Positions 20,744-46,279 of a stretch of 64,000 nucleotides of DNA are shown here, one piece after another. The notes under the pieces are model-generated. The model saw nothing but the letters and a program-made list of their open reading frames with translations. It ran no database searches and had not been told where the DNA came from. The number at the start of each line of letters is the position of its first letter. The stretch's first letter is position 1. The DNA is from an uncultured beta proteobacterium (GTDB lineage: Bacteria; Pseudomonadota; Gammaproteobacteria; Burkholderiales; Burkholderiaceae_C), in the NCBI GenBank assembly GCA_963740455.1, contig CAVUEF010000012.1, positions 148,298-212,297 on the forward strand. Direction: 5' to 3'. Both the position numbers and the translations under genes were made by a program.

Positions 20744-20758
20744 TGGCATAGAAAGTGC
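20744..20758 (+). promoter_or_regulatory. candidate sigma-54 (-24/-12) promoter upstream of the PEP-CTERM gene
   Basis: TGGCAT-AGAAA-GTGC against consensus TGGCAC-N5-TTGC, with correct GG/GC spacing, about 40 nt upstream of ATG 20799. Confidence 0.35.
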
Positions 20759-20798
20759 GTGTAGATGCGCGTAACCAAGTCTATGAGGGGATCAGATA

Positions 20799-21797: not shown

Positions 21798-21915
21798 TTC
21801 AAAGCTTGAAGTCGTAATCAATCGTCAGCGGCGCATGGTCGCTGAAGCGCCGGTCGAGATAGATGGACTCGCGCCTGGCCAGCGCCGCGAGGCCGGGCGT
21901 CGCCAAGTGATAGTC
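21798..21915 (-). repeat. 118-bp direct repeat copy inside the intact xthA 3' end
   Basis: Pairs with 20164-20281 (2 mismatches). Confidence 0.9.
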
Positions 21916-28206: not shown

Positions 28207-28207
28207 G

Positions 28208-29233: not shown

Positions 29234-30257
29234 GCGACAACTCCTGAGCGAGCGACTCGCCCTGCCCCGCCGACGCAGACCAGGCGTCGGGCAGTTCGCG
29301 AAAGCGCCGCCCGCCGATCTGCTTGAAGCGTTTACGCGAGAACAGCATGGCACGCGGATGGTCTTGCAGCCCGCAGCCCGGGATGGCGCGCTCGAGCACG
29401 GCGCGCACGCTGTCGCGGTCGCGGCCATGCACCATGCAATAGAGGTTGTACGGCCAGCCAGGGGCGCGCTCGCGCCGGTAGGCCAGCGTGACGCCGGCTT
29501 CGCGTGCCAGCGCCATGCCGCAGGCATCGACGCGTGCGTCGGGCACATCGAATACCGTCATCGCATTCGCGGCAAAACCGAGCTCATGGTGGCGCACGAT
29601 GGCGCCAAAGCGGCGCAGCGTGCCGTGCTCGAGCCAGCGCTCGAGCGTGCGCATGACGGCGTCGGAGCTGCTGCCCAGTGCTTGCGCCCAGGCATCGAAA
29701 GGCCGCGCTATCAGCGGCAAGCCCTCTTCCACCAAGGCCGCCAGCGCCCATTCTTCGTCGGCCACCGGTGCCGGCGCGGCCGAGTGCGCAGCGCCTTGCC
29801 CGGCCGTGCTGTGGCGCAGGTCGAAACCGAGGTCGATGCGATAGGCGCGCTCCATGCGCAGCCGCAAGGCGGGCAGCCCGGTCGTCGCTTCGAGCTGCCG
29901 CATGGCTGCCTCGACGCACTGGGCATCGCGTCCGGTCATGACAAACCAGAGATTGAAATGATGTTCGCGTTCGTAGTTGTGGTTCACGCCAGGATGCAAG
30001 GACACCATGGCGGCCACCGCGTCCAGACGATCGACCGGCACCGCCATGGCCGACAGCAGCGCCGCGCCGCCCGTGCCCGCGCCGAATACGCCGCCGATGC
30101 GGCTCAAGGCGCCCTCGGCCAGCAGCTCGCGATAGGCTGCCATCACTTGCTGCGCAGGCATTGCCTGCACTGCAGCGATGTGCTCGAACGGTTCGCGCAG
30201 CAGCGGAAAGTCGCGCTGCCAGTTGTTGAGCAGTGCCAGGCGGGCAGCGTGGTGCAT
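29220..30257 (-). CDS. nirDL: fused NirD-NirL siroheme decarboxylase subunits (AsnC/Lrp-like)
   Basis: 345 aa starting MHHAARLALLNNWQRDFPL. Two tandem halves (..NHNYEREHHFNLWFVM.. and ..LAYRRERAPGWPYNLYCMVH..). 14-nt overlap with nirGH. Confidence 0.8.
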   Translation of the reverse strand: MHHAARLALLNNWQRDFPLLREPFEHIAAVQAMPAQQVMAAYRELLAEGALSRIGGVFGAGTGGAALLSAMAVPVDRLDAVAAMVSLHPGVNHNYEREHHFNLWFVMTGRDAQCVEAAMRQLEATTGLPALRLRMERAYRIDLGFDLRHSTAGQGAAHSAAPAPVADEEWALAALVEEGLPLIARPFDAWAQALGSSSDAVMRTLERWLEHGTLRRFGAIVRHHELGFAANAMTVFDVPDARVDACGMALAREAGVTLAYRRERAPGWPYNLYCMVHGRDRDSVRAVLERAIPGCGLQDHPRAMLFSRKRFKQIGGRRFRELPDAWSASAGQGESLAQELSHAAS

Positions 30258-30261
30258 GTGC

Positions 30262-31446
30262 CTAGAACCCGATGCGCGCGGCGCGCGAGGTAAGGAAGAT
30301 GCCGCTGGGCCCGGCCACCAGCAGCGTCGCCAGGGTCTGGAAGTTGCGCGTGTCGATCGCAACAATGTGGTCGGCGTCGCGTGCGCTGATCCATACCGCT
30401 TCGCCACGCGGCGTGAACTCCATGTGCAGCACCGCCTTGCCCGGCGACAGCGTGCGCACAACCTGGTGCGTCAAGGTGTCGATGACTTGCACGCGGTCGT
30501 AGTCGGGTACCGCGAAATTGACCCAGACTTGCCGCCCGTCGGGCTGCGCCATCACGAACACCGGCTGGCCGGCGACCTTAATGCGGGCCACTTCAAGCCA
30601 GGTCTGCGTGTCCACCACCAGCACTTCATGGTGACCGATGGCCGGCAGATAGACATAGCGCCCTGCCACCGACCAGCCACGCAGATGCGGCATCTTGAAC
30701 ACCGGCAAAGCCACCTCGCCCTTGCCATAACCGTCCAGGATGCGGCGCGCCTTGGGCACTGGCGCCCACAGGTCGACCAGCGCCAGGCCGTCCTCGCCGA
30801 ACAGTCCGGCGATGTAGTAGCGCCCATCGGGCGTGACCAGCGCGTCGTACGGCTGGCGGCCGATGTCGCTCAGTCGCGTGATCTTGGGCGCGCTCACATC
30901 CGACAGATCGGCGATCCAGATCGCGTTGCCATCGAACAGGCTGAATGCAAAACGCTGGCCCGGCAGATCGACCAGACCGACCACGCGCGACAACTTGCCC
31001 GGTGCGTACTCGGCGGGAATGTCTGCCACCAGTGCGAGTGTCTTGGCGTCAAACACCTTGACACCACCGGGCTGGTAATTCTGTGCAGCCACCAGCGTGC
31101 CGTCCGACGAGATCGCACCGCCGATAGAGTTGCCGGCCTGCATGATGCGTGCCTCGATGCGGCGCGTCAGCAAATTCACCTTGGTGAGACCTCCATCGCG
31201 GCCAAAGACATAGGCGACCGCGCCATCGCGCGAAAACACCACCGACGCGTGCGACAAGTCGCCCAGGCCGGTGACTTCGCCCAGCAGCGCGCGCGAACTG
31301 GTGTTGATCAGCGCCAGCGTGCCGCTGCCTCGTTCGATCACGACGCCCAGGTCGCCGGTGCCCACCGGCGACACCGTCATGCAGCCGGGCAGCAAGGCCG
31401 CGGTCGTCGATGCCGCCAGCAATGTCAGCAGTTCACGGCGCTTCAT
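30262..31446 (-). CDS. nirF: heme d1 biosynthesis protein NirF (cd1-propeller-like lipoprotein)
   Basis: Start MKRRELLTLL. Lipobox LLPGC. d1-type propeller without a heme c motif. ATGA overlap with the nirC stop. Confidence 0.85.
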   Translation of the reverse strand: MKRRELLTLLAASTTAALLPGCMTVSPVGTGDLGVVIERGSGTLALINTSSRALLGEVTGLGDLSHASVVFSRDGAVAYVFGRDGGLTKVNLLTRRIEARIMQAGNSIGGAISSDGTLVAAQNYQPGGVKVFDAKTLALVADIPAEYAPGKLSRVVGLVDLPGQRFAFSLFDGNAIWIADLSDVSAPKITRLSDIGRQPYDALVTPDGRYYIAGLFGEDGLALVDLWAPVPKARRILDGYGKGEVALPVFKMPHLRGWSVAGRYVYLPAIGHHEVLVVDTQTWLEVARIKVAGQPVFVMAQPDGRQVWVNFAVPDYDRVQVIDTLTHQVVRTLSPGKAVLHMEFTPRGEAVWISARDADHIVAIDTRNFQTLATLLVAGPSGIFLTSRAARIGF

Positions 31447-31784
31447 GGTCTTGCCCTCATCGGTTCTTCGGGAAAGCCCAGGGCGAGTTGCTGTGCAATC
31501 CACTGGGCGTCGGCCTGGCTGAGCAATGTGCGCCAGGGCGGCATCGGCGTGCCCGGCCGACCATGGTAAATCGTCGCAGCCAGCGACTCGACGGGTTTGT
31601 CTGCCAGCGCCTCGCGCGTCAGCGCGGGTCCGAGTCCCCCCGTCAGCCGCATGCCGTGGCAGGCGCCACAGTCCTGCCGCACCATGCGCGTCAACGTGCG
31701 TTGGCGCTCGACGGCGGGCGCACTGTCGGCGGCGTGCGCAACTGCGACGCCAAGCAAGAGCAGCGCCGCGAGCTTGCGCATCAT
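31443..31784 (-). CDS. nirC: cytochrome c55X NirC
   Basis: 113 aa starting MMRKLAALLLL. Signal peptide, CGACHG heme c motif, position between nirM and nirF. Confidence 0.8.
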   Translation of the reverse strand: MMRKLAALLLLGVAVAHAADSAPAVERQRTLTRMVRQDCGACHGMRLTGGLGPALTREALADKPVESLAATIYHGRPGTPMPPWRTLLSQADAQWIAQQLALGFPEEPMRARP

Positions 31785-31786
31785 GG

Positions 31787-32098
31787 TTAGGATTTGAGAA
31801 TCAGCTCGATCGCGGCTTTCAGATCGGCATCGCTGATCTTGTCGACCGGATTGGGCGCCATCGGAATCGGGCCGAACGTGCCCGAGCCGCCCGAGCGGAC
31901 CTTGGCCATCAGCTTGGCCATCACGTCCTGGCCCTTGTACTTGGCGGCAATGTCCTTGAACGCCGGGCCGACAATTTTCTTGTCCTTTGAATGGCAGGCC
32001 ATGCAGCCGGCCTTGGTCATGGCTTCTTCGGTGCTGGCCCAGGCGCCGGCGCTTGCCAGCGCCAGCGACGCGGCGATGATCAGAGAGGTCTTCTTCAT
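31787..32098 (-). CDS. nirM: cytochrome c551/c552 (class I c-type), NirM
   Basis: 103 aa. Signal peptide, CMACHS motif, distal Met region (GPIPMAPN). Confidence 0.85.
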   Translation of the reverse strand: MKKTSLIIAASLALASAGAWASTEEAMTKAGCMACHSKDKKIVGPAFKDIAAKYKGQDVMAKLMAKVRSGGSGTFGPIPMAPNPVDKISDADLKAAIELILKS

Positions 32099-32168
32099 GC
32101 GGAAATCCTTTGAAAATCCAGTCAGGGGAGCAGGGCGTGCCGAGTGTAGCGGCGAAGCACTTGCGTTC

Positions 32169-32213
32169 GCCCGACCGACTCGAGTCCGTGGCAGTCACGG
32201 CCTCAAGTCGGGC
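32169..32213 (-). terminator. intercistronic stem-loop between nirS and nirM (possible attenuator or mRNA-stabilising hairpin)
   Basis: Outer stem GCCCGAC/GTCGGGC enclosing CCGTG..CACGG and the GACTCGAGTC palindrome. No clear U-tract. Confidence 0.3.
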
Positions 32214-32228
32214 TGAGCTTCAGCAATC

Positions 32229-33992
<1,764 letters not shown>

Positions 33993-34036
33993 TCAATACT
34001 GGCTGCGATGGTCAGCCAGACACGGCATCGCCGTCC

Positions 34037-34050
34037 TTGAACCAGTTCAA
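34037..34050. promoter_or_regulatory. FNR/Dnr/NnrR-type binding site in the nirS-nirE divergent promoter region
   Basis: Perfect palindrome TTGAACCAGTTCAA (TTGA-N6-TCAA). Centred 84 nt upstream of the nirS ATG and 65 nt upstream of the nirE ATG. Confidence 0.75.
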
Positions 34051-34108
34051 GGACCCATGCACCTTAGGCCTGAACAATGCGCCAATGCCATCAGAAGGAC
34101 TCGAGCGA

Positions 34109-34933
34109 ATGAGTGTGATCAACGAACCGCTGCGCTTTGATGCGCCAACGCTCATGCCGCGCCCGGCCAAGGTGACGCTGGTGGGCGCCGGGCCGGGCGA
34201 TCCCGAGCTCTTGACGATCAAGGCCGCCAAGGCGCTGGAAGCGGCGACGCTGGTGCTGATCGACCATTTGGTGGGACCGGAGGTGCTGGAGCTCGTCCCT
34301 GCGTCGGCCCGGCGCATCTATGTCGGCAAGGAGTCCGGCCACCACAGCATGCCGCAGCAGGCCATCATCGAGCTGATGATAGATCTCGCCCGCAGCGGCA
34401 AGCCGGTGTTGCGGCTCAAAGGAGGTGACCCCTACATCTTTGGCCGCGGCGGTGAAGAGGCCCAGGCGCTGGCCGGCGCCGGCGTGCCGTTCGAAGTGAT
34501 CCCCGGCATCAGCGCGGCGCAGGGCGCTGCGGCGCTCGCCGGCATACCGCTGACGCACCGCGACCATGCCTGCTCGCTGGTGCTGACGACCGGGCATTTG
34601 CGCGGCGAAGGCGCCAAGCGCGGCGTCGATCTCGACTGGGGGCTGTTGGCCCGCCCCAACCAGACGGTGGTGGTCTATATGGGTGTGGCCACGCTGCCGG
34701 TGATCTGCCGCGAACTGGTCGCGCATGGCTTGCCCGCCGCCACACCGGCAGCGACCGTGGAGCGCGCCACGCGCGCCGACCAACGCACGGTGGTGGGCAC
34801 CCTGGCCACGCTGCCCGGGCTGGCTCTCGCGCATGACGTGAAGTCACCGGCGCTGATCATCATCGGCGGCGTGGTGTCGCTGCACGCGACGCTGGGATCA
34901 TCTGCTGTCGAGCAGCGACTGGCCGCGCCCTGA
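34109..34933 (+). CDS. nirE: uroporphyrinogen-III C-methyltransferase (NirE/CobA)
   Basis: GAGPGDPELLT motif and RLKGGDPYIFGRGGEE. Start ATG 34109 is preceded by GAAGGA (alternative ATG 34085). Divergent from nirS. Confidence 0.9.
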   Translation: MSVINEPLRFDAPTLMPRPAKVTLVGAGPGDPELLTIKAAKALEAATLVLIDHLVGPEVLELVPASARRIYVGKESGHHSMPQQAIIELMIDLARSGKPVLRLKGGDPYIFGRGGEEAQALAGAGVPFEVIPGISAAQGAAALAGIPLTHRDHACSLVLTTGHLRGEGAKRGVDLDWGLLARPNQTVVVYMGVATLPVICRELVAHGLPAATPAATVERATRADQRTVVGTLATLPGLALAHDVKSPALIIIGGVVSLHATLGSSAVEQRLAAP

Positions 34934-34942: not shown

Positions 34943-36850
34943 TCAGCCTTGAGGCGGCGCAGCCGACGGCAAGAACGCATCCGAAAAGCACATGTCGTCG
35001 CCGAGCCCGTGCGCGATGAAGGTCGGCACCGCCGCCTCGACCATCTTGACTGAGCCGCACACATAGACCTCGAACCCGCGCATGTCGGGAAAGTCGGCCA
35101 GCATGGCCTCGTGGACCAACCCGCGCCGTCCGGTCCATGCATCAAGCGGTTCGGCATCCGAGAGCACCGGCACGAAATGGAAGTTGGCATGCTCGCGCTG
35201 CCACTGTTCGGCAAGTTCGACCATGTACAGATCTTGCGGACGACGCGCGCCCCAGTAGAGCCACATCGGCCGCGTCAAGCCGCGCTGGAACGCGTCTTCG
35301 ACAATGCTCTTGACCGGCGCAAAGCCGGTCGCACCCGCCACGAACAGGATAGTCCGCTCGCTCTCGCGCAAGGTGAAGTTGCCCAGCGGCCCTTCGAAGT
35401 GAAGCGCGTCGCCCACCTTCATGTCGGTGAACACATGGCCGGTGAACCGACCGCCCGGAATGCGCCGCACATGCAGCTCGATGCGATCATTGTGATGCGG
35501 CGCATTGGCGAACGAGAATGCGCGTCGCCGGCCGTCGTCGGGAACGATGTTGATGTACTGGCCGGCGACAAAATCAATGCGCTCGGCGCCGGGCAGCACA
35601 ACGGTGAGCCGGGTCAGATCTTCGGTGAGGCGCTCAATTCTCTCGATGCGCCCGACATGGGCGCGCGGCGTCTCCCGCACCGCGTCCATCTCGCCCGCCA
35701 CCTCGATTTCGAGGTCCGACAAAGGCGTGGCGCAGCACATCAAGGCCTTGCCTTGGGCGCGCTGACTGTCTGGCAAGGCAGCACGCTGGTAGGCGCCATG
35801 GTCGACGCTGCCGTGCGACACCGTGCACAGACACACGCCGCAGCCGCCGTTGCGGCACTCATAGGGCAGGTTCAGGCCTTCGCGCAAGCCGGCCTCGAGC
35901 AAGGTCTCGCCGGCGCGGATGGCGACGGGGTCTTGCCGGCCTTGCACCGTCATGCGGAACTCCCCTGCCTTGGCGCGCCTGAATTTCGGCGGAAGCCAGG
36001 GCAGCGCCGCGATCAGCAAGGTCGCTGCGCCGAGCAGCGCCCATACGTTTGCCAGCGGCCACACATAGAGCAGCGGAAACACCGTCAGGTAGAACCAGTC
36101 GAGTTGCAGCAGCGCCGGCGCGATGTCGAGCTGCGCCGCGCCGCCCTGGCTCAGCGCGGGCTTGATCAGCGACAGTGCCAGCAGCGTCAACGCCACGCTG
36201 ATCAGAATCGGTCGCGGCGGGAGCGTCTTGGCTTTGGGAACGCGCTGCACATGGATCCACATCAGCAGCAGCACGAGCAGCGGAATGCCGATATGCATGA
36301 ACGACAGCAGCGAGAAGAAGCGGTCGTTGACGCTGGTCGTGTAGATGAAGTTGCGCACCAAGCTGCCACCAAAACCGGGCAGCCAGTCGAGCCACTCGAA
36401 GCTGGCCACAATGACGAACTGCGCCAGCTGATCCCAGGGCAGCATATAGCCGTTGATGCCCGATATATAGACGCCCCAGATCAGCGCCACGCCGCTGACC
36501 CACGAGAACCAGCGAAAGCCGCGCATGCGGTTGAAGGCAAAGTGGCGCAGCATGTGCAGCAGCATCGTCAGCACCATCGCGTCCGAGGCATAGCGATGCA
36601 GGCTGCGCAAAATGCCGCCCGCGAACCACTGGCCGTGCGTCAAGGCCTCGACCGAGCCGTACGCGCCGGCCACACCGGTCTCGAAAAACGCATACAGGTA
36701 CAGCCCGCTGCCGGCCACCAGCCAGAACAGCGCAAAGCTGATCTCGCCCAGGTGGTACAGGGGATTGAGCCGGTCGCCAAAGGCGCGGTTGAAGAGCGCC
36801 TCGACACGCATGAAACACCACTGCAACAGCGACTGAAGGCGCGTCATCAT
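34943..36850 (-). CDS. fusion protein: diheme cytochrome b (bc1-type N-terminal domain) + [2Fe-2S] ferredoxin + FAD/NAD(P)H ferredoxin-reductase module
   Basis: 635 aa. Two bis-His pairs spaced 14 residues apart (RSLHRYASDAMVLTMLLHMLR; FMHIGIPLLVLLLMWIHVQR). Plant-type cluster motif CRNGGCGVC..CC. FNR motifs RAFSFAN, GPLGNF, AGATGFAP, YVCGS. ATGA overlap with the upstream gene. Confidence 0.8.
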   Translation of the reverse strand: MMTRLQSLLQWCFMRVEALFNRAFGDRLNPLYHLGEISFALFWLVAGSGLYLYAFFETGVAGAYGSVEALTHGQWFAGGILRSLHRYASDAMVLTMLLHMLRHFAFNRMRGFRWFSWVSGVALIWGVYISGINGYMLPWDQLAQFVIVASFEWLDWLPGFGGSLVRNFIYTTSVNDRFFSLLSFMHIGIPLLVLLLMWIHVQRVPKAKTLPPRPILISVALTLLALSLIKPALSQGGAAQLDIAPALLQLDWFYLTVFPLLYVWPLANVWALLGAATLLIAALPWLPPKFRRAKAGEFRMTVQGRQDPVAIRAGETLLEAGLREGLNLPYECRNGGCGVCLCTVSHGSVDHGAYQRAALPDSQRAQGKALMCCATPLSDLEIEVAGEMDAVRETPRAHVGRIERIERLTEDLTRLTVVLPGAERIDFVAGQYINIVPDDGRRRAFSFANAPHHNDRIELHVRRIPGGRFTGHVFTDMKVGDALHFEGPLGNFTLRESERTILFVAGATGFAPVKSIVEDAFQRGLTRPMWLYWGARRPQDLYMVELAEQWQREHANFHFVPVLSDAEPLDAWTGRRGLVHEAMLADFPDMRGFEVYVCGSVKMVEAAVPTFIAHGLGDDMCFSDAFLPSAAPPQG

Positions 36851-38250
36851 GGCAAGTTCCGGGTCGCAGCCGGGCGCCGCATCGCGCGAATCATGACGAC
36901 CACAAACAGCAGCCCGCCAACAATGGCCACCAGGCCGCCCAGGCCCATCAACCCCATGCCGGCGATCTCACCGAAGCCGCGCAGCACCTGCTCGGCGCCG
37001 GCCACCTTGCGCTGCACGCCATAGCCCCCCGACCAGACCAGGCCGGTGATATGCATCAGCTGGCCCACGCCGTAGACGCCGGGCTGCAAGGCCGCGAGGC
37101 GGCCGCTCGGCGCGGCGTAACCCAATTGCGGCAGCAAGTGATAAGCCAGGCCCATCAGCGCCAGCGTGACCCCGACGATGCAGCCGTGGTAATGCGCCGG
37201 AATGCGCACGTCGGCACCATTGATGAAGACGCCGATCAGCCCGCCCGACGCGAACAGCACGATGGACCAGATGAGTGCTGCGCGCAAGGCGCGGGTCGTC
37301 GTCTCGCTGCGCGGCATGGACGGCAGTGCCAGCACCACCGCCAAGGCAATCGGCACGATCGCCACGCCGCCGCCCAGGCGCATCGCCCAGGTCAGCAGAT
37401 TGCGGTGCTCGACCGACGCGATCGGGTAGGCGAGATAGGCGTAAGGCGTGACGAATACGCCCACCAGCGCCAGCACGAACATCAGCAAGGCGATGCGGGG
37501 GCTCAGCAGCAGCTTGGCGCCACACGCGCTGGCCAGCCACAGCCAGGCCACCAGCATCAGCAAGGTCCAGGTGAACTGGAGCGCATGCCCGCCGCCCCAG
37601 AACAGGACTTCGTAGTACATCTTGCCGACCAGCATCGGCGGCGTTGTCGCGAACGACCAGGCAAAGGCCAGCAAAGCCACCGCTGCCGAGACGGCGGCGG
37701 CATTCAGCCCGAAGTGCAGCACACCATCGCCGCCGAAGCCCAGGCCGAGCTTGGGCGCAGTGAACAAGCTGCGCAGCACGAGCACACCGGCGCCGAGCGC
37801 AAAAATCAGCAGGCCGGCCATGAACAGCGGGCGCTCAAGCACCGGGATGTAATTGGCCATGATGGGGTCGCCGTGCCCGATGAACGCCGCCAGCGCCATC
37901 AGGCTGGCACCCGTCCCGCTCAAGCCCAGAGCCGCCCAGCCCCAGGCCAGGCCGCGCGTCGATCCGTTCAGACTCCAGAGCAGCCCCGCCAGCGCCACAA
38001 ACCACACCAGCACCGACAGATCGACATGCACGACCAGCGCGACGCGAAAGAAATCCGCGCCGGGCAGGATCTGGTTGATGAGCGGCGTGCGCGACGCCAC
38101 CAGCAGCACCGAGAACAAGCCCGCGCCGATCAGCGCAATCAGTCCGAGCCACAACCAGGCGCGCGCCAGTTGACGCTGCGTGTCGCGCGGTACCGCCAGC
38201 GTGTACGGGTGGCCGTCGGCCAGTGAAGGGTCGAATGGAGTGGATGTCAT
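36847..38250 (-). CDS. highly divergent heme-copper-oxidase subunit-I-like 12-TM protein (stand-alone; NnrS-like alternative not excluded)
   Basis: 467 aa. Histidines at HCO-like spacing: H75 (VVHVD), H222 (FWGGGHALQF, compare cbb3 WWYGHNAVGF), E281-H282 where HCOs have HH, H353/H355 (AHYHG). ATGA overlaps at both ends. Confidence 0.5.
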   Translation of the reverse strand: MTSTPFDPSLADGHPYTLAVPRDTQRQLARAWLWLGLIALIGAGLFSVLLVASRTPLINQILPGADFFRVALVVHVDLSVLVWFVALAGLLWSLNGSTRGLAWGWAALGLSGTGASLMALAAFIGHGDPIMANYIPVLERPLFMAGLLIFALGAGVLVLRSLFTAPKLGLGFGGDGVLHFGLNAAAVSAAVALLAFAWSFATTPPMLVGKMYYEVLFWGGGHALQFTWTLLMLVAWLWLASACGAKLLLSPRIALLMFVLALVGVFVTPYAYLAYPIASVEHRNLLTWAMRLGGGVAIVPIALAVVLALPSMPRSETTTRALRAALIWSIVLFASGGLIGVFINGADVRIPAHYHGCIVGVTLALMGLAYHLLPQLGYAAPSGRLAALQPGVYGVGQLMHITGLVWSGGYGVQRKVAGAEQVLRGFGEIAGMGLMGLGGLVAIVGGLLFVVVMIRAMRRPAATRNLP

Positions 38251-38765
38251 CGCAGTGTGATCCCGCCCTTGGCCGGATCGAAGTCGATCACCAGAATTTG
38301 CGCCGGTTTCAATGTCACGCTGGCTTCGCGCACAAAGTCGAAGCCTGGCGTGCGCACATCGTTCTTCAGCCGGATCGCCAGCTGATGGGTGCCGGCGCTG
38401 ACCTGCAGGCGCTGGTAGAAGGCCGATGCACCGTCGCGCGACAGGCCCGAAGGCATCGCTACATGGTGCAGCACGCGCTTGCCATCGAGGTCGAGCTCCA
38501 CCGTGATCGGCGAGCGCTCGCGCGGACACACCACCGGCGCGCGCATATTGGGCGGCAGCTTGGCCAGCTCTTGCGGCGTCGCCTTGTGGCACGCCGACAC
38601 CGGCAAGCCCTGGTGGTTGAAGCTGAACTTGATCAAGGCCTGGTCGGGCGCCAGGTGGCGGTACGGCGGCCAGTTGGAGAACGCGCCAATGAACAGCGCG
38701 AACAATCCGTACAGCAGCGCCTGCGCGATCCAGGCCTTCGGGGTGAATGGGGTCTTGTCAGTCAT
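38247..38765 (-). CDS. membrane-anchored periplasmic protein of unknown function (single N-terminal TM helix plus a beta-rich domain of about 130 aa)
   Basis: 172 aa starting MTDKTPFTPKAWIAQALLYGLFALFIGAF. No CXXCH and no CuA motif. 8-nt overlap upstream and ATGA overlap downstream. Confidence 0.6.
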   Translation of the reverse strand: MTDKTPFTPKAWIAQALLYGLFALFIGAFSNWPPYRHLAPDQALIKFSFNHQGLPVSACHKATPQELAKLPPNMRAPVVCPRERSPITVELDLDGKRVLHHVAMPSGLSRDGASAFYQRLQVSAGTHQLAIRLKNDVRTPGFDFVREASVTLKPAQILVIDFDPAKGGITLR

Positions 38766-40296
38766 GGGATGGGGTAAGGCATTGTGCCCGCAAGGCAAGC
38801 CGCTGGCGCAAGCGCAGCAAGGCCGCTTGCAAGGTGGACTCTGCGCCCGCATCGGCCCAGGCCAGTTCGAGTTGATCAAGTGGCACCGAGTCGCGCAGGT
38901 GGGGCTCACGCAGCCCTTTCAGCCGCTCGGCGGTCCAGCGTTGGCCGAGCCGGAATTCGCAGCCGCCTTGCGAGCAGCCGCTGACCAGCACGCCGTCGGC
39001 ACCGTCGCGCAACGCGTACTCGATGAACGAGGGCGGCAGCTGGCCGGCGCACATCAGGCTGAAGACAACAACATCGGGGGCTTCGAGCGCGCTGACCTTG
39101 GCACCGCAATCGCAGCCAAACACGACGATCTTGTGCGGCGCATCGGCCAGTCCTTGCGAGAGGCGCCGGCGCAGTGCGCCGATGGGGGCGGACGGCATGT
39201 CGATGCCGGTGACAAGTTCCGCCGCGCCGCGAAACGGTGTGGACGAGGGGCAGGCGCCAACGCAGATGCCGCAGCTCGCGCACAGGTCGGCGTCGACCTG
39301 TGCCATCTGGCGGATGCTGCGCACGGGATGCGCCACCATCGTCACCGCGGCATACGGGCAGTCGTCGAAGCAGCGACGGCAGCCGTTGCAATTGGCCGCG
39401 TCGACCACGGCAATCGGCGCCACCGCAGCTTGCGGCAGATAGGGCAGCGCGAACAGCAGCAAGAGCGCCGCCGACAGCAGCGTCCAGACGAAACCGGGCG
39501 AGGTCGCGTAGACGAGCGGATGCACAAACAGGAGCAGCCAATCAAAGCTCAGCGCGCCGGGCACGCTCGCCAGATCGGCTGGTGCCTGACTCATCACCGG
39601 CGCGACCAGCGCCAATCCGAGCAGGGTCAAACCGGTACCGATGGCCAGCGGGCGCGGCGGAAACACCGCCGCGCGGCTGATGCGCTGAATATGGAACCAC
39701 AGCGCGAACACCGACAGCAGCGGCACGCCCAGGTGCACGAACACCAGCAGCGAGAAGAGGCGGTCGCTCAGCGACGCCGCGTTGAGAAAGTTGCGCGTCA
39801 ACGGCGCGGCAAAGAGCGGCAGCCGGTCCAGCCACTCGGCCGTGGCGAGCGCCGAGAACTGGCCGAGCTGGTCCCAGTTCAACCAGAAGCCGCCAATCGC
39901 GCTGATGAAAACCAGCAGCAGCAAGGGCACGCCGGTGAGCCACGAGAAGCGGCGAAAACCGCGGTAGCGGCCGAACAGCGCCTCGCGCAGCAGATGGCCG
40001 AGCATCAGCACGACAAAGGCATCGGCCGCATAGCGGTGCAGGCTGCGCAGCACGCCGCCCAAATACCACTGTTGACGTGAGAGCTGGTCAATTGATCGAT
40101 ACGCGTCGGCCACCGAGGTATCGAGCGCCGCATACAGGTAGATGCCGCTCAAACCCAGCAACCAGAACATCATGAAGGCCAGCGTGCCCAGGTGCCGCAG
40201 GGGATTGAGGCCGGAGCCGAACGCGCCATCGAAACCGTGCTCGCAGCGCCGGTAGCCGGCCAGCGCCAGCAGGCGGATCGATCGCAGCGGGTGCAT
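38758..40296 (-). CDS. fusion protein: diheme cytochrome b (paralog of the 34943-36850 N-domain) + 2x[4Fe-4S] ferredoxin + MvhD/FlpD-like domain
   Basis: 512 aa. Bis-His pairs RSLHRYAADAFVVLMLGHLLR and FVHLGVPLLSVFALWFHIQR. Cluster motifs CNGCRRCFDDCP and CASCGICVGACP. MvhD-like segment VVFGCDCGAKV..MCAGQLPPSFIEYALRDGADGVLVSGCSQGGCEF. Confidence 0.75.
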   Translation of the reverse strand: MHPLRSIRLLALAGYRRCEHGFDGAFGSGLNPLRHLGTLAFMMFWLLGLSGIYLYAALDTSVADAYRSIDQLSRQQWYLGGVLRSLHRYAADAFVVLMLGHLLREALFGRYRGFRRFSWLTGVPLLLLVFISAIGGFWLNWDQLGQFSALATAEWLDRLPLFAAPLTRNFLNAASLSDRLFSLLVFVHLGVPLLSVFALWFHIQRISRAAVFPPRPLAIGTGLTLLGLALVAPVMSQAPADLASVPGALSFDWLLLFVHPLVYATSPGFVWTLLSAALLLLFALPYLPQAAVAPIAVVDAANCNGCRRCFDDCPYAAVTMVAHPVRSIRQMAQVDADLCASCGICVGACPSSTPFRGAAELVTGIDMPSAPIGALRRRLSQGLADAPHKIVVFGCDCGAKVSALEAPDVVVFSLMCAGQLPPSFIEYALRDGADGVLVSGCSQGGCEFRLGQRWTAERLKGLREPHLRDSVPLDQLELAWADAGAESTLQAALLRLRQRLALRAQCLTPSHD

Positions 40297-40302: not shown

Positions 40303-41130
40303 TCAGCTCGGCCGCGCTGCGCGCCGCAGGCGCCGCTGGTTGCGCCATTCGAGCAGAAAGAACCAGACCATGGCCAGCGCGAAGGTCACGCCGCCAGCGA
40401 TCTCGATGACCAATCCGTAATTCGTTCGGTAGGTGCCGGTCACCGGGTCGTACACGGTGCACAGAATGCGCACGCGGTCAATCAGCTCGGACAGCGGCAG
40501 GCCGGCCGGCATCGGCTGGTCGCGCAGCAGCAGCCGCATCGGCTCGCCGAGCTTGTCGCGCGACAGGTTTTCGCCATACACCTGGGCATAGACGCGACCG
40601 CGCGGGTCGAGCACCGACACCGCCAGCAAGTGATCGAAACCGGCCGGCGTGGCCACATAGCTGAAGCCGAAGTCGCGCGTCAAGGCGTCGACCGAGGCCT
40701 GCGGCGGGCTCAGAAACTGCCAGTTCGGCGCCTTGATGCGCATTTGCGCCGCAAACGAGCGCATCGCCGCCGGCGAATCGGACGGCTGGTTGAAACCGAT
40801 GCTGACGACGCTGAACTTGTCGGCACCGAACACCTGGCTCAATTGGTCGACGGCCTCGGCCAGCGACTTGGTGGTGGTCGGACAGACCTGGAAGCAACCC
40901 GTGTAGATGAAGCTCACCAACAGCGGCTTGCCGCGATAGTCGGCGAGCCGCACCAAGCGACCTTGCGTGTCGAGCAGTTGATGCGCGCCCACGTCGCGGC
41001 CGATGGCGGCCTGGCTGTCGCGCAGGGCGCTCGCCGCGTCAAGCGCGGGCGTGGCGCTACCGGCCGGTTGCGCAGCGAGCGGCGCGACCAGCACGGCCCA
41101 CAGCAGTGCCAGCGCAGCGCGGGAGTTCAT
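40303..41130 (-). CDS. senC: SCO1/SenC copper chaperone with a C-terminal membrane extension
   Basis: Start MNSRAALALL (ATGA overlap with the ctaB stop). CFQVCP (CxxxC) motif and conserved His (FDHLLAVS). C-terminal TM helix. Confidence 0.85.
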   Translation of the reverse strand: MNSRAALALLWAVLVAPLAAQPAGSATPALDAASALRDSQAAIGRDVGAHQLLDTQGRLVRLADYRGKPLLVSFIYTGCFQVCPTTTKSLAEAVDQLSQVFGADKFSVVSIGFNQPSDSPAAMRSFAAQMRIKAPNWQFLSPPQASVDALTRDFGFSYVATPAGFDHLLAVSVLDPRGRVYAQVYGENLSRDKLGEPMRLLLRDQPMPAGLPLSELIDRVRILCTVYDPVTGTYRTNYGLVIEIAGGVTFALAMVWFFLLEWRNQRRLRRAARPS

Positions 41131-42026
41131 CGCAACAGACCGTCGAGCGTCGCTGCCGCAAGCACCATGCTCAGCTGCACCAGCGACGCGAAGAACGCGC
41201 CCATCGCCGTCTTGCGATTGGTGTCGCGCAACAGCTGCCAGGTCTTGTGCACGAAGTGCGCGCCGCCCGTGGCAGCGCCCATCAAGTAGATCGGGCCGGC
41301 GCCAAAAAACGCTGGCAACAACGACGCGCCAACCAGTGCCAGGGTGCTGTAAAAAACAATCTGCGCCGCACGCTGCGGCCCCACCACGACGGGCAGCATG
41401 GGCACACCTGCGGCCGCATAGTCGGCCTGATTGGCGATGGCCAGGCTCCAGAAATGCGGTGGCGTCCAGAGGAACAGCACGCATGCCAGCAGCAGCGGCA
41501 GCGCGCTGATCTGGGGGTTGACCGCGGCCGCGCCGGCCAGCACGGCAAAACTACCGGCCAGGCCGCCGATCACGATATTCAGCGAGCTGCGCCGCTTCAG
41601 CCACAAGGTGTAGACCACGCCATAGAAGAACGCACCCAGAAACGTGTACAGCGCGGCCATACCGTTCAACACCAGCCAGGCGGCGGCCACCGCACCTGCC
41701 AGTAGCAGGGCGATCAGCACCAGCCAGGCCGGCGAATGCGGCAACGCGCCGGTCACGAAAGCCCGACCGCGCGTGCGCGCCATCAGGCGATCGGTGTCGG
41801 CCTCGGCGTACTGGTTGAACGCGCCGGCCGCGGCCGACGACACCAGTACCGACAGGGCCAGCACCACCACTTGCCAGACAGCGGGCGCAGGGCCCGGCGT
41901 GACCGCCAGCCCGACCAGCGCGGTGATCATGATCATCACGCCGATGCGCAGTTTGAACAGGCCGAGCACCTCGCGGACGAGGCCGACGGCAGATCGTTGC
42001 GCGGGATGTGCCGCGGTCGTGCTCAT
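41127..42026 (-). CDS. ctaB: protoheme IX farnesyltransferase (heme O synthase)
   Basis: 299-aa UbiA-family polytopic protein (..NQYAEADTDRLMARTRGR.., ..WTPPHFWSLA..). Confidence 0.9.
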   Translation of the reverse strand: MSTTAAHPAQRSAVGLVREVLGLFKLRIGVMIMITALVGLAVTPGPAPAVWQVVVLALSVLVSSAAAGAFNQYAEADTDRLMARTRGRAFVTGALPHSPAWLVLIALLLAGAVAAAWLVLNGMAALYTFLGAFFYGVVYTLWLKRRSSLNIVIGGLAGSFAVLAGAAAVNPQISALPLLLACVLFLWTPPHFWSLAIANQADYAAAGVPMLPVVVGPQRAAQIVFYSTLALVGASLLPAFFGAGPIYLMGAATGGAHFVHKTWQLLRDTNRKTAMGAFFASLVQLSMVLAAATLDGLLR

Positions 42027-42030: not shown

Positions 42031-43731
42031 TCAGCTCAGTCCCCAGACCTGGGACAGGTACTTCCAGTTGATGAAGTAGTACAGCACGAAGGACACCAGG
42101 AACACCATCGCCAGCGCGAAGGTACCCGGCGCGGCAAACCCGGCCGAACCGTAGGTCTGTGCCGCGATGGTCGGCGCCGTGGGTGGAATCGGTGTGAACT
42201 TCGGGCTCACCGTGCCGCTGTCGAGCTTCTTGCCCCACAACAGCGAACCGACGGTCACAAAGATGTAGATCCCCCCGCCGACAATGGCGGCAATGCCGAA
42301 GATGCCGACCAGACCCATCATCAGGTAGGCGGCGCCCGGCCATTCATAGGCCATCGGCGAGCCGTTGAAGGCCAGGTCCCAGTGGCGGCGCGGAACACCC
42401 AGCGTGCCCGCACCCATCATGACCAGCACGAAGCCGTACATCGACAGGCCGAACAGATAGGGCTGCCACTGTGCCAGCTTGGGCGCGATCATCTCGCGCT
42501 TGAACAGCACCGGGATCAGAAAGTAGGTCAGCGCCATGAAGGTCAGGGTGGTCCCGATCACCACCGTGGCGTGGAAATGGCCCGGCACGTAGATGGTGTT
42601 GTGGATGATCATGTTGAGCTGTTCTGTGCCCATCATGACGCCCGAGATGCCGCCCAGGAAACCGAAGCCGATGATCGAGATGAACACGCCCGAGAACACC
42701 GGGTTGCCCCAGGGCGCCTTGCGCAGCCATTCGAACAGGCCCTTGTTGTAGCCCTTGGCGCGCTGCGCGACTTCGATCGCGCCGGGGATGGTGAGTCCGT
42801 GGATCATCGAGGCCAGCACCGCGAAATACATGAAGTAGCTGGTGTTGACGACCTTCCACGCGGTCGACATGCCGGGGTCGGCGAGCAGGTGGTGTGCGCT
42901 GGCGAGTTGCAGGAACAGGATGTAGAGCAGGAAGGCGCCGCGGCTGACGCGCTCGCTCATCGGCTTGGCGCCGAACGCGATGGCCGCCACCGCGTACCAG
43001 ATCGAGATGTGCGCGGCCACGTTGATCTGCTGCGACGAGTGGCCGAAGGCCCACCAGATGGTGCGGTACATGAGCGGATCAACCGCCTTGATGACGCCCA
43101 CCGACAGCAAGAAGGTGGGGATCAGGATGATGGCGCCCGACGCGATCGTGAACACGGCGATGATCGCCGCGGTGATGGCACCGAACGTGACCAGCGGCAC
43201 CGAGCCCTGGTAGGTCTTTTCGCGCTTGGCCACGACCAGCGTGCCGAAGAAGACAAAGCACGCGATAAGCGCGCCGACGGCGAACAGAATCAGTCCGAGG
43301 TAGAAATGCGGCGCGGCCATCATCGGCACGTACGACGTCATCATGACACTGGAGCCGCCCTGGAACACGGCGACATTGTTCATGATCCCGCCGATCAGCA
43401 TCAAGGCGAAGGCCAGCCACGCCATCTTGGGCGTCGCGAGCCGACAGCGCAACAGCGTTGACGACGCGAAATACAGGACGGCGATCTCGAAGAAGATGAC
43501 CCAGAAAATCAGCATGTCGATGCCGTGCGCGGTGAGCACCTGGTAGAAGGTGTCGGCCGCGAGCCAATGCACGGCGGGCCAGCGAGTCAACGCCACGCCG
43601 ATGGCCAGGATGCCACCGATGAGCAGGAACACGACCGCGACGAACGCGTTGGCCTTCATCAATTTTTCGGCATTGGCCTCGAATTGCAGTCCCGAGCGCG
43701 GGCAGGTTCGATAAGTTGTTGTTACGGACAT
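42031..43731 (-). CDS. heme-copper oxidase subunit I, B-family-like, lacking the cross-link tyrosine (candidate NO reductase of the sNOR/eNOR type)
   Basis: All six His ligands are present (LTAHG; WWAFGHSSQQ; ASAHHLL; PGHFHAT). Helix VI reads GHSSQQ instead of GHP(E/I)VY. ATG 43731 is preceded by GGAGG (alternative ATG 43755). Confidence 0.8.
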   Translation of the reverse strand: MSVTTTYRTCPRSGLQFEANAEKLMKANAFVAVVFLLIGGILAIGVALTRWPAVHWLAADTFYQVLTAHGIDMLIFWVIFFEIAVLYFASSTLLRCRLATPKMAWLAFALMLIGGIMNNVAVFQGGSSVMMTSYVPMMAAPHFYLGLILFAVGALIACFVFFGTLVVAKREKTYQGSVPLVTFGAITAAIIAVFTIASGAIILIPTFLLSVGVIKAVDPLMYRTIWWAFGHSSQQINVAAHISIWYAVAAIAFGAKPMSERVSRGAFLLYILFLQLASAHHLLADPGMSTAWKVVNTSYFMYFAVLASMIHGLTIPGAIEVAQRAKGYNKGLFEWLRKAPWGNPVFSGVFISIIGFGFLGGISGVMMGTEQLNMIIHNTIYVPGHFHATVVIGTTLTFMALTYFLIPVLFKREMIAPKLAQWQPYLFGLSMYGFVLVMMGAGTLGVPRRHWDLAFNGSPMAYEWPGAAYLMMGLVGIFGIAAIVGGGIYIFVTVGSLLWGKKLDSGTVSPKFTPIPPTAPTIAAQTYGSAGFAAPGTFALAMVFLVSFVLYYFINWKYLSQVWGLS

Positions 43732-43744
43732 GGTGCCCTCCGCC

Positions 43745-44284
43745 TTACTTGACATAGATGCGGCCCACCATCGTGTGATGGCCGATGCCGCAGTATTCGT
43801 TGCAGACTACCGAGAAGGTACCGGCCTGGTTGGGCGTGACGGTGACCACATGCTCGTAGCCCGGCACGATCTGGATATTGATATTGGCCGGCTGCAGCGA
43901 GAAGCCGTGGTTGTAGTCCATCGACGTCAGGTGCAAGCGATAGGTCTTGTCCTTCTCGAACTCGACGATGGGCCAGAATTTCCAGAGGCTTGCGACGATG
44001 TAGACATCACTGCCGGGCGGCGGCGCAACAACCGGAATCTTGTCGGCGGTCTCGGTGCGCACCGTGTACTTGTCGACCACCGCCTGGGCCTTGGCGGTGA
44101 ACATCGCCGAGGTGGTCTTGTAGGTCTCGGTGGAGAGATTCTGTTTGCCGTAGACATGCCAGCCGACCATCATGGCGAACATGATCAGACACCAGATCAG
44201 GGCAATCACGATCCAGGTGCCTTCGACACGGTCCAGCGGGTGTTTCCACCAAAGTCGTTCTGCGGGGGGCAGGATAGCGCTCAT
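43745..44284 (-). CDS. heme-copper oxidase subunit II with an intact CuA site
   Basis: 179 aa. One TM helix and a cupredoxin domain with DYNHGF and CNEYCGIGHHTM (H..CxExCGxxHxxM). Confidence 0.85.
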   Translation of the reverse strand: MSAILPPAERLWWKHPLDRVEGTWIVIALIWCLIMFAMMVGWHVYGKQNLSTETYKTTSAMFTAKAQAVVDKYTVRTETADKIPVVAPPPGSDVYIVASLWKFWPIVEFEKDKTYRLHLTSMDYNHGFSLQPANINIQIVPGYEHVVTVTPNQAGTFSVVCNEYCGIGHHTMVGRIYVK

Positions 44285-44536: not shown

Positions 44537-44618
44537 GATAAGAATGCGCGATGTTGACATCAATGTTCCACGCTGTGCTCGCTCATATCTACGGGTTAGA
44601 CCTATCAGGGAATTCCGC

Positions 44619-45581
44619 ATGAACATGACCCAGCGTCGACAAACCTGGCTGCGACGTGCGGCCCTGTTGTGTGCGGCACTGGTGCTGGCCATCACCAGTC
44701 TGAGCGCCTTCATTCGGCTCTCGCAAGCGGGCTTGGGTTGCAGCGAATGGCCGCAGTGTTATGGCAGCCGCTTGCGTGACGCACAGCATGGCCGCGTGGC
44801 CAGCGTCACGGACAGCGCTGCGGTCGTCGCCGCGCGGCTCACGCATCGCGTGGTGGCGGTGACCGCCTTGCTGCTCGTGATTGCGATGGTGGTGCTGTGC
44901 TTCGGCAATCGGCCCTTCCTGCTGCGTGAGGGCATGCTGGCGTTGGCCTTGCTCGCCTTGGCGCTGGGATTGGCGGTACTCGGCCGCTGGACCGCAGGGA
45001 CGCGCGTGCCGGCGGTGGCGATCGGCAACTTGCTGGGCGGTCTGCTGATGCTGGCGCTGAGCTGGCGGTTGGCAGCCCGCGCGGCGCCGCGGCTCGACTC
45101 GCGATTGCGCTTCTGGGCAAGGATGGGGGCGGCAGTGTTGCTCATCCAGGTGACTGCGGGGGCACTGCTCAGCGCATCGTATGCGGGTCTGAGCTGTGCC
45201 GGAGCGCTGGATTGCCTGCGCACGGCGCAAGCCGCGCAGTGGCCTTGGCACGCCTTGAACCCGTGGCGCGAACCGGTGTTCGACGCCATGCAAAGCGCGC
45301 CGAACCCCGCGGGCGCACTCGTCCAACTGGTGCACCGCGGCGGCGCGCTGCTGACCTTGCTGGTGTTGGCCCCGCTGGGCGTGGCGGTGCTGCGTGGCGC
45401 GCACCAACGCGAGGGCGCGGCACTGCTGGCGCTGCTGGTCATCCAGATCGGCGTGGGCGTGCTCATGCCGATCGCGTCCCTGCCGCTGGGCTTGGCGCTG
45501 GCTCACAACATCGTTGCCGCATTGTTGCTGGCGACACTGGTCCGCCTAGAATGCGCTTCCATGAGTCAGGAGAAGCCCTAG
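44619..45581 (+). CDS. ctaA: heme A synthase (COX15/CtaA family)
   Basis: Start MNMTQRRQTW. GLGCSEWPQCYG motif, conserved His in TM helices (LTHRV, LVHRG, LAHNI), 8 TM helices. Confidence 0.85.
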   Translation: MNMTQRRQTWLRRAALLCAALVLAITSLSAFIRLSQAGLGCSEWPQCYGSRLRDAQHGRVASVTDSAAVVAARLTHRVVAVTALLLVIAMVVLCFGNRPFLLREGMLALALLALALGLAVLGRWTAGTRVPAVAIGNLLGGLLMLALSWRLAARAAPRLDSRLRFWARMGAAVLLIQVTAGALLSASYAGLSCAGALDCLRTAQAAQWPWHALNPWREPVFDAMQSAPNPAGALVQLVHRGGALLTLLVLAPLGVAVLRGAHQREGAALLALLVIQIGVGVLMPIASLPLGLALAHNIVAALLLATLVRLECASMSQEKP

Positions 45582-45596
45582 TGGAAATGCGCCAAT

Positions 45597-46279
45597 TCGA
45601 CGTGCCGCGCTACCTGTCGGTGCTGCCGCTGTTCAACGACATGAGCCCGACCGAGTTGGAAGGCCTGGCCAGCGGCTGCACGCTGCGCCGGTTGGCGCGC
45701 GGCGACGCGGTATTTCGCGTGGGCGAACCCTGCGAAGCATTCCACGTCACCGTGATGGGCCAGGTCAAGCTGTTCGCGATTTCGCCCGCGGGTCAGGAAA
45801 AAGTCATCGAGCTGGTCGGCCCCGGCCAGAGCTTTGCCGAGGCGCTGATGTTCACCGACAAGCCCTACATCATCAATGCGCAGGCGCTCACCGACACGTT
45901 GCTGCTGACTGTGCAAAAGAGCGCCGTGCTGGCCGAAATCGACCGGGACAGGCGCTTCGCGCTGCGCATGCTGGCGGGCATTTCGCGCCGTCTGCACGCG
46001 CTGGTGGGCGACGTCGAAGCCTATGCGCTGCACAGCGGTTTGCAGCGCGTGATCGGCTACCTGCTGCGCGACCAGGCGCCCGAAGATGAAAGCTCGAATG
46101 GCGAGGTCACCGTGTCGCTGCCGGTGAGCAAGGCCACCATCGCGTCGCGCTTGTCGCTGACGCCCGAATACTTTTCGCGCGTGCTGCACGAGCTGGAAGC
46201 CAAAGGCTTTATCGAGGTCGACAAGCGCGACATACGGATTCGCGACCCGCAGGCGCTGGCACGCTACCAGGCGTCCTGA
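45597..46279 (+). CDS. Crp/Fnr-family transcriptional regulator, Dnr/NnrR type
   Basis: cNMP-binding-like fold and a C-terminal HTH with the E--SR recognition motif (TPEYFSRVL). No N-terminal FNR Cys cluster. Sits beside the nir and oxidase genes. GTG 45591 is an alternative start. Confidence 0.85.

Follow-up and report, generated by a model that had tools for sequence, protein, structure and literature searches.

A divergent haem-copper oxidase homologue with an altered active site, encoded among eNOR and haem-a biosynthesis genes

INTRODUCTION

What does a haem-copper oxidase (HCO) homologue do when its haem ligands are conserved, its distal site is altered and its neighbours belong to the synthesis of haem a? 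The question is raised by a 64,000-nucleotide stretch of DNA from an uncultured beta proteobacterium (GCA_963740455.1, contig CAVUEF010000012.1, positions 148,298 to 212,297; hereafter the window), in which one gene encodes an HCO-like protein of 467 residues that we label HCOL:

36847..38250, minus strand: HCOL, 467 residues, 12 transmembrane helices; ATG at 38250, stop codon at 36847-36849

A first reading of the DNA letters alone (hereafter the original prediction) had described HCOL as a stand-alone, strongly divergent HCO subunit I homologue with a Glu-His pair, E281-H282, at the place of the usual His-His ligands of CuB or FeB. Our follow-up shows that HCOL is a divergent HCO whose active site is altered. 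The gene does not stand alone, and the protein is not an FeB variant with Glu in place of His. As to its function, we tentatively favour, with slightly less than even confidence, a CuB-less two-haem protein that acts as a redox or haem-handling accessory, fed by NAD(P)H through a cytochrome b fusion and serving the biogenesis of haem-a cofactors. HCOL is of interest because of this link to haem a biogenesis in denitrifiers, and because the apparent loss of the binuclear centre is unusual in a conserved HCO.

RESULTS AND DISCUSSION

HCOL is a divergent HCO subunit I homologue

HCOL matches the Pfam family COX1 (PF00115) over residues 28-421, with an E-value of 4e-11 and a score of 42.9 bits against a gathering score of 34.8. 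NnrS (PF05940), the family that the original prediction had named as the one to be told apart from COX1, gave zero matches to HCOL in Pfam at E ≤ 10 and zero in NCBIfam, and membership of NnrS was ruled out on that ground. No NCBIfam model matches the protein.

An AlphaFold2 model built from 55 diverse homologues has 12 long helices (pLDDT 92.8, pTM 0.93), in agreement with the 12-helix, 467-residue reading frame that had been described without its strand, which is the minus strand. When this model was compared with the PDB by Foldseek, all matches were HCO subunit I chains, led by Thermus thermophilus ba3 subunit I (E about 2e-8, TM-score 0.67-0.74, 19-20% identity), and structures of cNOR ranked lowest among the HCO types (E 3e-5). 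A profile of the 55 sequences, searched against PDB sequences, found B-family structures only (ba3, E 2.5e-17; 7DEG, 3.6e-14) and no cNOR structure; the single HCOL sequence and a shallow profile matched no PDB sequence. In a profile-profile comparison by hhalign, the HCOL family (121 sequences) and eNOR (82 sequences) were related with a probability of 99.9 and an E-value of 5e-36. Against one A-type COX1 the same method aligned the C-terminal third only, at a probability of 51% and with no coverage informative for helix VII.

The Pfam match, the AlphaFold and Foldseek results and the B-family profile matches therefore identify HCOL as a genuine, strongly divergent HCO subunit I homologue of the B-family/eNOR branch, and the original prediction was right to place it among the divergent members of this superfamily.

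The ligands of two haems are conserved

The residues singled out in the original prediction are all present in the protein: H75 in VVHVD, H222 in FWGGGHALQF, E281-H282, and H353 and H355 in AHYHG. The four histidines outside the E281-H282 pair are 97-100% conserved in diverse relatives, in keeping with the proposal that ligands for two haems have been retained. Across approximately 390 sequences, the positions conserved at 95-100% are H75, H222, H353, H355, W218, G221, Q225, N133-Y134-x-P136, M290, R414 and K415. In deep profile alignments H75, H355 and H353 fall on ba3 H72, H386 and H384. By alignment, then, HCOL is predicted to keep both His ligands of the low-spin haem (H75 and H355), H353 as proximal ligand of the high-spin haem, H222 as a single distal His (accompanied by W218 and Q225), and R414 and K415 as propionate-binding residues.

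The family-wide invariants of HCOL are haem-related residues only; positions 270-272 and 281-282 vary. H400 is invariant in the clades of standard length and is Leu or Met in a clade that carries a TPR domain. Non-conservation among orthologues had been named in advance as grounds for giving up the original prediction. H75, H222, H353 and H355 withstand that test, and E281 and H282 do not.

The helix-VII metal ligands appear to be lost

Where, then, does the His-His position of the CuB/FeB site fall in HCOL? A shallow hhalign comparison (24 close sequences against one eNOR) put E281-H282 on the eNOR His-His pair, as the original prediction had done, and it did so through a 10-residue gap and with zero confidence at that point. 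Deeper alignments and the residue spacing overturned this placement. Both a 55-sequence profile aligned with ba3 by hmmsearch and the hhalign comparison of 121 HCOL with 82 eNOR sequences run ungapped through helices VI-VIII; the His-His pair falls on Y270-A271/Y272 in the former and again at Y270-A271-Y272 in the latter. The mapping to positions 270-272 is supported because the spacing equals that of the neighbouring eNOR and of ba3: H222 plus 49 gives 271, 49 residues also separate the helix-VI His from His-His in the eNOR encoded nearby, and the ba3 spacing between H233 and H282 is 49 residues as well. E281-H282 lies 10 residues further on, where helix VIII begins, and aligns there with the segment T-W-K; in the HCOL model helix VII spans residues 251-274 and the following helix residues 280-311.

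The deep alignments thus point to the loss of both helix-VII copper or iron ligands from HCOL, with Y270-A271-Y272 in their stead. In the three-His set of a CuB/FeB site, H222 is invariant and the other two positions are variable and hydrophobic or aromatic family-wide, position 272 being Tyr in 100% of the close clade and Tyr, Phe or His elsewhere. At H222+4, where a cross-link Tyr would stand and where its absence had been correctly noticed, HCOL has F226, and the family has Phe, Tyr or Leu. No alternative invariant Tyr was identified on helix VII family-wide, and no conserved polar K-channel residues were seen on helix VIII in the family alignment. The expectation of an altered distal site was therefore sound, with the cross-link Tyr missing and the helix-VII His pair gone.

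Comparison with characterised HCO types gives the same picture. Relative to ba3 subunit I (PDB 1XME/1EHK), HCOL keeps equivalents of H72, H233, H384 and H386, but it has Ala/Tyr for H282/H283 and Phe for Y237, and its K-channel residues are unconserved. The types cNOR and qNOR are marked by three His and a Glu at H+4, whereas HCOL has Phe at H+4 and lacks His-His. It also departs from the eNOR pattern: Q225 stands at H+3, F226 occupies H+4 and His-His is missing. Replacement of a CuB-type His has a precedent among HCOs in gNOR, which has Asp for one active-site His (PMC11214002). By its description, gNOR retains its remaining ligands and is accompanied by a cupredoxin subunit that lacks CuA, whereas HCOL appears to have lost both helix-VII ligands, its Glu lies off the ligand position, and the 172-residue protein encoded next to it is not cupredoxin-like by Foldseek.

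If E281-H282 is not a substitute for His-His, what is it? The pair is present in 119 of 120 close relatives. Among diverse members of standard length, E281 is kept in approximately 48% and H282 in approximately 29-36% (Phe or Tyr otherwise), and the TPR-fused clade has [E/D]-F at these positions. Even within HCOL's own cluster, at 40-57% identity, the pair varies among EH, EF, DH, FH and QH. Loci with cytochrome b partners have E-H in 102 of 116 cases and x-H in 110 of 116, as against E-H in 2 of 11 partnerless loci with room for such genes, a contrast that shared ancestry confounds. E281-H282 is, by alignment and model, best described as a clade-specific feature at the predicted start of helix VIII, near its periplasmic end, that is tied to the cytochrome b partners. 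The idea that a carboxylate replaces a metal-ligating His in a NOR-like FeB site is not supported, as the pair is off the ligand position and unconserved family-wide, and there is no Glu at H+4.

HCOL is part of an eNOR and haem-a biosynthesis cluster

HCOL is surrounded by the following genes:

34943..36850, minus strand: cytochrome b-FNR, a di-haem cytochrome b fused to plant-type [2Fe-2S] ferredoxin, FAD-binding and NAD(P)H-binding domains
38247..38765, minus strand: small protein of 172 residues, one N-terminal transmembrane helix and a beta-sandwich
38758..40296, minus strand: cytochrome b-FeS, a di-haem cytochrome b (N-terminal bc1-type) with two [4Fe-4S] ferredoxin motifs and an MvhD/FlpD domain
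40303..41130, minus strand: SCO1/SenC copper chaperone; start chosen at MNSRAAL, longest open reading frame to 41484
41127..42026, minus strand: haem O synthase (CtaB/CyoE); TIGR01473, 255.7 bits against a cut-off of 210.3
42031..43755, minus strand: eNOR-type HCO subunit I; W-W-A-F-G-H-S-S-Q-Q with Gln at the cross-link Tyr position, His-His and H-F-H
43745..44284, minus strand: eNOR subunit II, a cupredoxin with the CuA motif C-N-E-Y-C-G-I-G-H-H-T-M
44544..45581, plus strand: haem A synthase (COX15/CtaA), divergent from the eNOR operon
45587..46279, plus strand: Crp/Fnr-family regulator; start approximate

From 44284 down to 34943 all genes are co-directional, in the order eNOR II, eNOR I, haem O synthase, Sco, cytochrome b-FeS-MvhD, 172-residue protein, HCOL and, last, cytochrome b-FNR. 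The stop codon of the 172-residue gene overlaps the HCOL start, and the HCOL stop overlaps the start of cytochrome b-FNR, each in an ATGA; HCOL is translationally coupled to both neighbours. The original prediction rightly saw HCOL as sandwiched between redox fusion proteins, since the two cytochrome b fusions flank it, but its picture of a stand-alone gene with no cognate subunit II has to be abandoned: besides the overlaps on both sides, an eNOR-type subunit I lies approximately 4 to 6 kb upstream together with a CuA subunit II, in the same direction, and the cluster recurs in most related loci. HCOL is an accessory gene of this eNOR and haem-a-biosynthesis cluster.

The upstream subunit I is an eNOR because it has Gln at the cross-link Tyr position, which is diagnostic of eNOR, sNOR having Asn there (PMC8756737 Table A4); the label sNOR was ruled out by the same residue. 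The motif G-H-x-S-Q-Q occurs in 87 of 87 partner subunits I from related loci. With this subunit HCOL shares its fold, its branch of the superfamily, its haem ligands, the G-H-x-x-Q motif on helix VI and an operon, and probably also a dependence on haem-a-type cofactors. It differs from eNOR I, characterised in the Rhodothermus marinus enzyme (PMC11214002), in having no helix-VII His-His, Phe rather than Gln at H+4, approximately 100 fewer residues and no CuA subunit of its own, being coupled instead to the cytochrome b fusion reductases.

The cytochrome b domain of each fusion contains two H-x13-H pairs, the mark of a di-haem wire that spans the membrane. In its soluble part, cytochrome b-FNR is closest to the NADH-FAD-[2Fe-2S] reductases of oxygenases (BenC, MmoC, AntC). 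In the 172-residue protein the conserved residues are a Cys pair (C59 and C80), H51 and N73-M74-R75; it has no Pfam match and 2,419 'hypothetical' homologues. A cupredoxin or Cox11-like subunit was considered here and rejected, as Pfam gave no match and Foldseek, run with an AlphaFold model built from database homologues, found only generic beta-sandwiches at E ≥ 3e-3.

Directly downstream of the eNOR cluster, positions 26965-34933 hold a complete cd1 nitrite reductase region. This haem-d1 cluster consists of nirS (32229-33959, minus strand), a small cytochrome c, nirF-like, nirD/L/G/H-like and radical-SAM nirJ-like genes, and a uroporphyrinogen methyltransferase gene (cobA/nirE; 33938-34933, plus strand). 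The listed large open reading frames of the window showed no norCB, and eNOR may therefore be the NO reductase encoded beside nirS.

Two further features of the window lie apart from this cluster. A 1,907-residue open reading frame (6284-12007, plus strand) begins with a UvrA-type motif (...GPSGSGKS). At approximately twice the usual length of UvrA, it may represent a UvrA paralogue that has been duplicated or fused. Positions 12001-22000 have a G+C content of 0.55-0.62 against 0.64-0.68 on either side and may be an acquired segment; this stretch holds open reading frames of 563 residues (14882-16573, minus strand) and 137 residues (19643-20056).

Relatives of HCOL accompany haem-processing genes

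HCOL has more than 6,600 relatives in the databases (1,494 representatives at 50% clustering), and relatives occur in at least 599 species-level genomes. The closest are from Burkholderiales and other Beta- and Gammaproteobacteria, and cultured carriers include Curvibacter, Piscinibacter, Comamonas, Simplicispira, Ramlibacter, Castellaniella and Noviherbaspirillum. The HCOL-eNOR cluster recurs, in the gene order of the window, in L001 and most related loci. In the 63 loci that extend 8 kb or more to both sides of HCOL, the neighbours are Sco (57), eNOR I (55), subunit II (54), cytochrome b-FeS-MvhD (54), the 172-residue protein (54), cytochrome b-FNR (53) and CtaB (49). CtaA, detected by hidden Markov model, is present in 63 of the 72 loci with adequate flanks, and it directly adjoins HCOL in 41 loci, 23 times downstream on the same strand and 13 times upstream and divergent.

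The contexts of more distant members are simpler. In the smallest, which also holds a tetrapyrrole methylase, a 5-aminolevulinate synthase gene and CtaA stand divergently from HCOL, and the nearest 10 kb contain no HCO (L087, L089, L091, L144); in another, CtaA is divergent from HCOL, which is followed by Sco and, further on, NirS. In low-GC lineages HCOL lies beside other oxidase operons: in L108 an A-type oxidase (GHPEVY) with Sco and CtaB, and in L152 an A-type-like COX1 with CtaB and CtaA. Natural fusions join HCOL to haem O synthase (P0246, whose partner subunit I is eNOR-type) and to a cytochrome b (P0121).

Two variations were noticed among these loci. In low-GC L152 (9365-9967) and L161 (9365-9964), a GyrI-like small-molecule-binding protein replaces the 172-residue protein between CtaA and HCOL, and the associated oxidase subunit I is A-type-like, not eNOR. 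In several metagenomic loci, among them L094 (3982-5592) and L095 (5378-6982), a NosR/NirI-like membrane protein (FMN_bind and Fer4_5) is encoded between the divergent CtaA-HCOL pair and nirS.

A large clade of the family has an extra 13th transmembrane helix followed by a C-terminal TPR domain (L085, 10001-12034; L086, 10001-11863), which the additional helix would place in the periplasm. Its genes stand between ResB-CcsA and a second CcsA with thioredoxin, that is, among cytochrome c maturation genes, in the surroundings of multihaem cytochrome c/NHL-repeat clusters of the extracellular electron transfer type in Polaromonas and Magnetococcales, with no eNOR nearby. This arrangement suggests that the clade takes part in System II cytochrome c maturation, and it recalls the CcsBA/ResBC and CcmF systems with their TPR protein CcmI/NrfG, although the fold is unrelated to that of CcsBA/CcmF and HCOL of the window has neither a TPR domain nor adjoining maturation genes. 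The Magnetococcales locus L086 also encodes, approximately 6 kb from the TPR copy, a second paralogue of standard length (17805-19184, minus strand) with LFWGAGHVLQF and IPSHYHGSI and no His-His.

Across these contexts the constant neighbours of the family are haem-processing machinery (CtaA, CtaB, 5-aminolevulinate synthase, CcsBA) and not NO reduction as such. Rates of divergence can be read from the 58 loci that carry the whole cluster, as median identity to the window protein: 85% for eNOR I, 79% for subunit II, 71% for CtaB, 69% for HCOL, 65% for cytochrome b-FNR, 63% for cytochrome b-FeS, 58% for the 172-residue protein, 57% for Sco and 48% for CtaA. By this measure HCOL is clearly constrained, yet it evolves like the accessory and biogenesis genes and faster than catalytic eNOR I.

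Could HCOL itself be a terminal reductase? Together with cytochrome b-FNR it would form a self-sufficient NAD(P)H:NO (or NAD(P)H:O2) oxidoreductase for NO detoxification or O2 scavenging during denitrification, working either through the high-spin haem and distal H222 (a haem-only chemistry, cf. P450nor and flavohaemoglobin) or through a clade-specific metal at E281/H282(/H400/E214). Much in the locus would suit such an enzyme: the invariance of both haem sites, the distal His, W218 and Q225, a full NAD(P)H electron path in translationally coupled genes, the natural fusion to cytochrome b, the company that E-H keeps with the cytochrome b partners, and a cluster that adjoins nirS and a Crp/Fnr regulator, with an orthologous protein expressed under denitrifying conditions. 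It is harder to reconcile with the absence of two of the three non-haem metal ligands in every clade, with an E-H pair that is off the binuclear position and varies even between relatives 40-57% identical, and with a helix VIII on which no conserved K-channel residues were seen. Moreover, the same operon already encodes eNOR, many members have CtaA beside them and no reductase partner, and one clade is embedded in cytochrome c maturation genes. On balance we regard a catalytic HCOL, the main rival of the reading that we favour, as rather unlikely.

A protein named in passing, and the case for a scaffold

HCOL is not described in the main text of the PNAS survey of new NOR families (PMC11214002). 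The closest counterpart in the literature is the 'eNOR scaffold protein' of Ferrigenium straubiae (IMG gene 2878407321), to which a May 2026 preprint on the operon of that organism assigns an unknown function (bioRxiv 10.64898/2026.01.22.701106). The gene is a 'hypothetical protein' in IMG and K02274 (COX subunit I) in KEGG, and its product was detected in the proteome (bioRxiv 10.64898/2026.01.22.701106). It occupies the same operon position as HCOL, after a small hypothetical gene, in an operon with eNOR II and I, haem o synthase, Sco1 and two cytochrome b fusions around the scaffold gene; matched by this order and by its description, it is very probably the HCOL orthologue. On a CuB-less HCO family, or on an oxygen-independent haem A synthase partner, we found nothing in the literature beyond the preprint's label. 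HCOL represents a large accessory family that is still essentially uncharacterised, having been mentioned only in passing until now.

The preprint further speculates that the two cytochrome b fusions form a quinol:NAD+ supercomplex (bioRxiv 10.64898/2026.01.22.701106). HCOL would then be a structural scaffold that nucleates a supercomplex of eNOR and both fusions, in which NO reduction or quinol oxidation is coupled to NAD+ reduction by reverse electron flow, as proposed for Ferrigenium. The components do all co-occur and are co-expressed in the proteome. However, heterotrophic Comamonadaceae, Castellaniella and Ramlibacter, in which the cluster is frequent, have no need for reverse electron flow; four invariant haem ligands and propionate binders would be superfluous in a pure scaffold; and family members exist without eNOR or cytochrome b partners. 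A purely structural role seems to us very unlikely.

A possible redox or haem-handling role in haem-a biogenesis

How might a CuB-less two-haem protein serve the cofactors of eNOR? The survey of new NOR families reports a modified haem a (As) in both haem sites of eNOR, and many eNOR operons carry CtaA (PMC11214002). In the eukaryotic system, haem A synthase receives its electrons from ferredoxin and ferredoxin reductase (PMC12670532). It is tempting to see a parallel here, as the mitochondrial ferredoxin (Yah1/FDX1) and its reductase (Arh1/FDXR) combine an NAD(P)H-FAD-[2Fe-2S] supply with the haem A synthase Cox15, and the HCOL cluster has a [2Fe-2S]-FAD-NAD module, fused to a membrane cytochrome b, together with CtaA and CtaB. 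The eukaryotic system differs in having no HCO-like protein, and in the bacterial case the link is one of gene neighbourhood only.

Under the reading that we tentatively favour, electrons would pass from cytoplasmic NAD(P)H to the FAD and on to the 2Fe-2S cluster of cytochrome b-FNR. Its two b haems would take them across the membrane towards the periplasmic side, where the haems of HCOs sit, and from there they would move laterally to the low-spin and then to the high-spin haem of HCOL. Such an NAD(P)H-fed two-haem module would not respire NO. Instead, it may serve the production or insertion of haem-a-type cofactors for eNOR, along a route from CtaB through CtaA to eNOR I, with HCOL as the partner of haem A synthase that delivers reductant, holds haem, or does both. 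E281-H282, H400 and E214, all predicted near periplasmic helix ends, could then provide a docking site or a metal site on the periplasmic side, rather than a substitute for CuB/FeB.

Several considerations count against this proposal. Haem-a-using enzymes are commonly encoded beside ctaA and ctaB, and because of this the neighbourhood also fits a haem-a-containing catalytic enzyme. Known haem chaperones such as Surf1 and CcmE are small, whereas HCOL, with 12 transmembrane helices, a high-spin haem and a distal His, looks like an enzyme, and CtaA functions in many bacteria without such a partner. The retention of E-H in so large a majority of the cytochrome b-partnered loci suggests a constrained and possibly catalytic or metal-binding feature, for which the proposal offers no explanation, and E281, H282, H400 and M290 were placed relative to the haem pocket by alignment and helix boundaries only. 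The functional role as a whole is drawn from sequence, a structural model and gene neighbourhood, and we keep it tentative.

The requirement of haem A synthase for O2 (PMC12808453) opens a further line of thought. Expression of eNOR needed microoxia (PMC11214002), and the Ferrigenium preprint asks how O2-dependent haem a synthesis proceeds under anoxia (bioRxiv 10.64898/2026.01.22.701106). Perhaps HCOL is an O2-supplying enzyme akin to nitric oxide dismutase, providing a local oxidant for haem A synthase during near-anoxic denitrification. The direct adjacency of CtaA in 41 loci and an altered distal site on an HCO scaffold would be in line with this, as would the two observations just cited. 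But similarity to the qNOR-type NOD branch was neither looked for nor seen, and the PDB profile matches are to the B family only. Dismutation has no use for an NAD(P)H reductase, a second metal site is not conserved, and the idea is purely speculative; we consider it highly improbable. In a broader form, which we still judge quite unlikely, HCOL would enable haem a synthesis at vanishing O2, either by generating or concentrating the oxidant for haem A synthase, for instance through NO-dismutase-like or oxygenase-type chemistry at a CuB-less high-spin haem, or by forming, with the NAD(P)H-cytochrome b fusion, the long-sought bacterial electron donor system of CtaA. Either version, if true, would explain how denitrifiers build a haem-a-dependent eNOR near anoxia.

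Significance

By estimate, much of the N2O produced in the environment comes from NO reductases of the eNOR type, which depend on the O2-requiring haem-a pathway (PMC11214002). Our analysis indicates that a widespread family accompanies eNOR and haem A synthase, one that seems to have kept its two haems, discarded the copper or iron site and become wired to NAD(P)H by way of membrane cytochrome b fusions. Members of this family can be miscounted as oxidases or NO reductases in metagenomic surveys. Were HCOL catalytic after all, it would be the first HCO to work without a binuclear centre. If, as we tentatively propose, HCOL works with CtaA as its redox or haem-handling partner, this would speak both to the physiological electron donor of bacterial haem A synthase and to the maturation of eNOR at very low O2.

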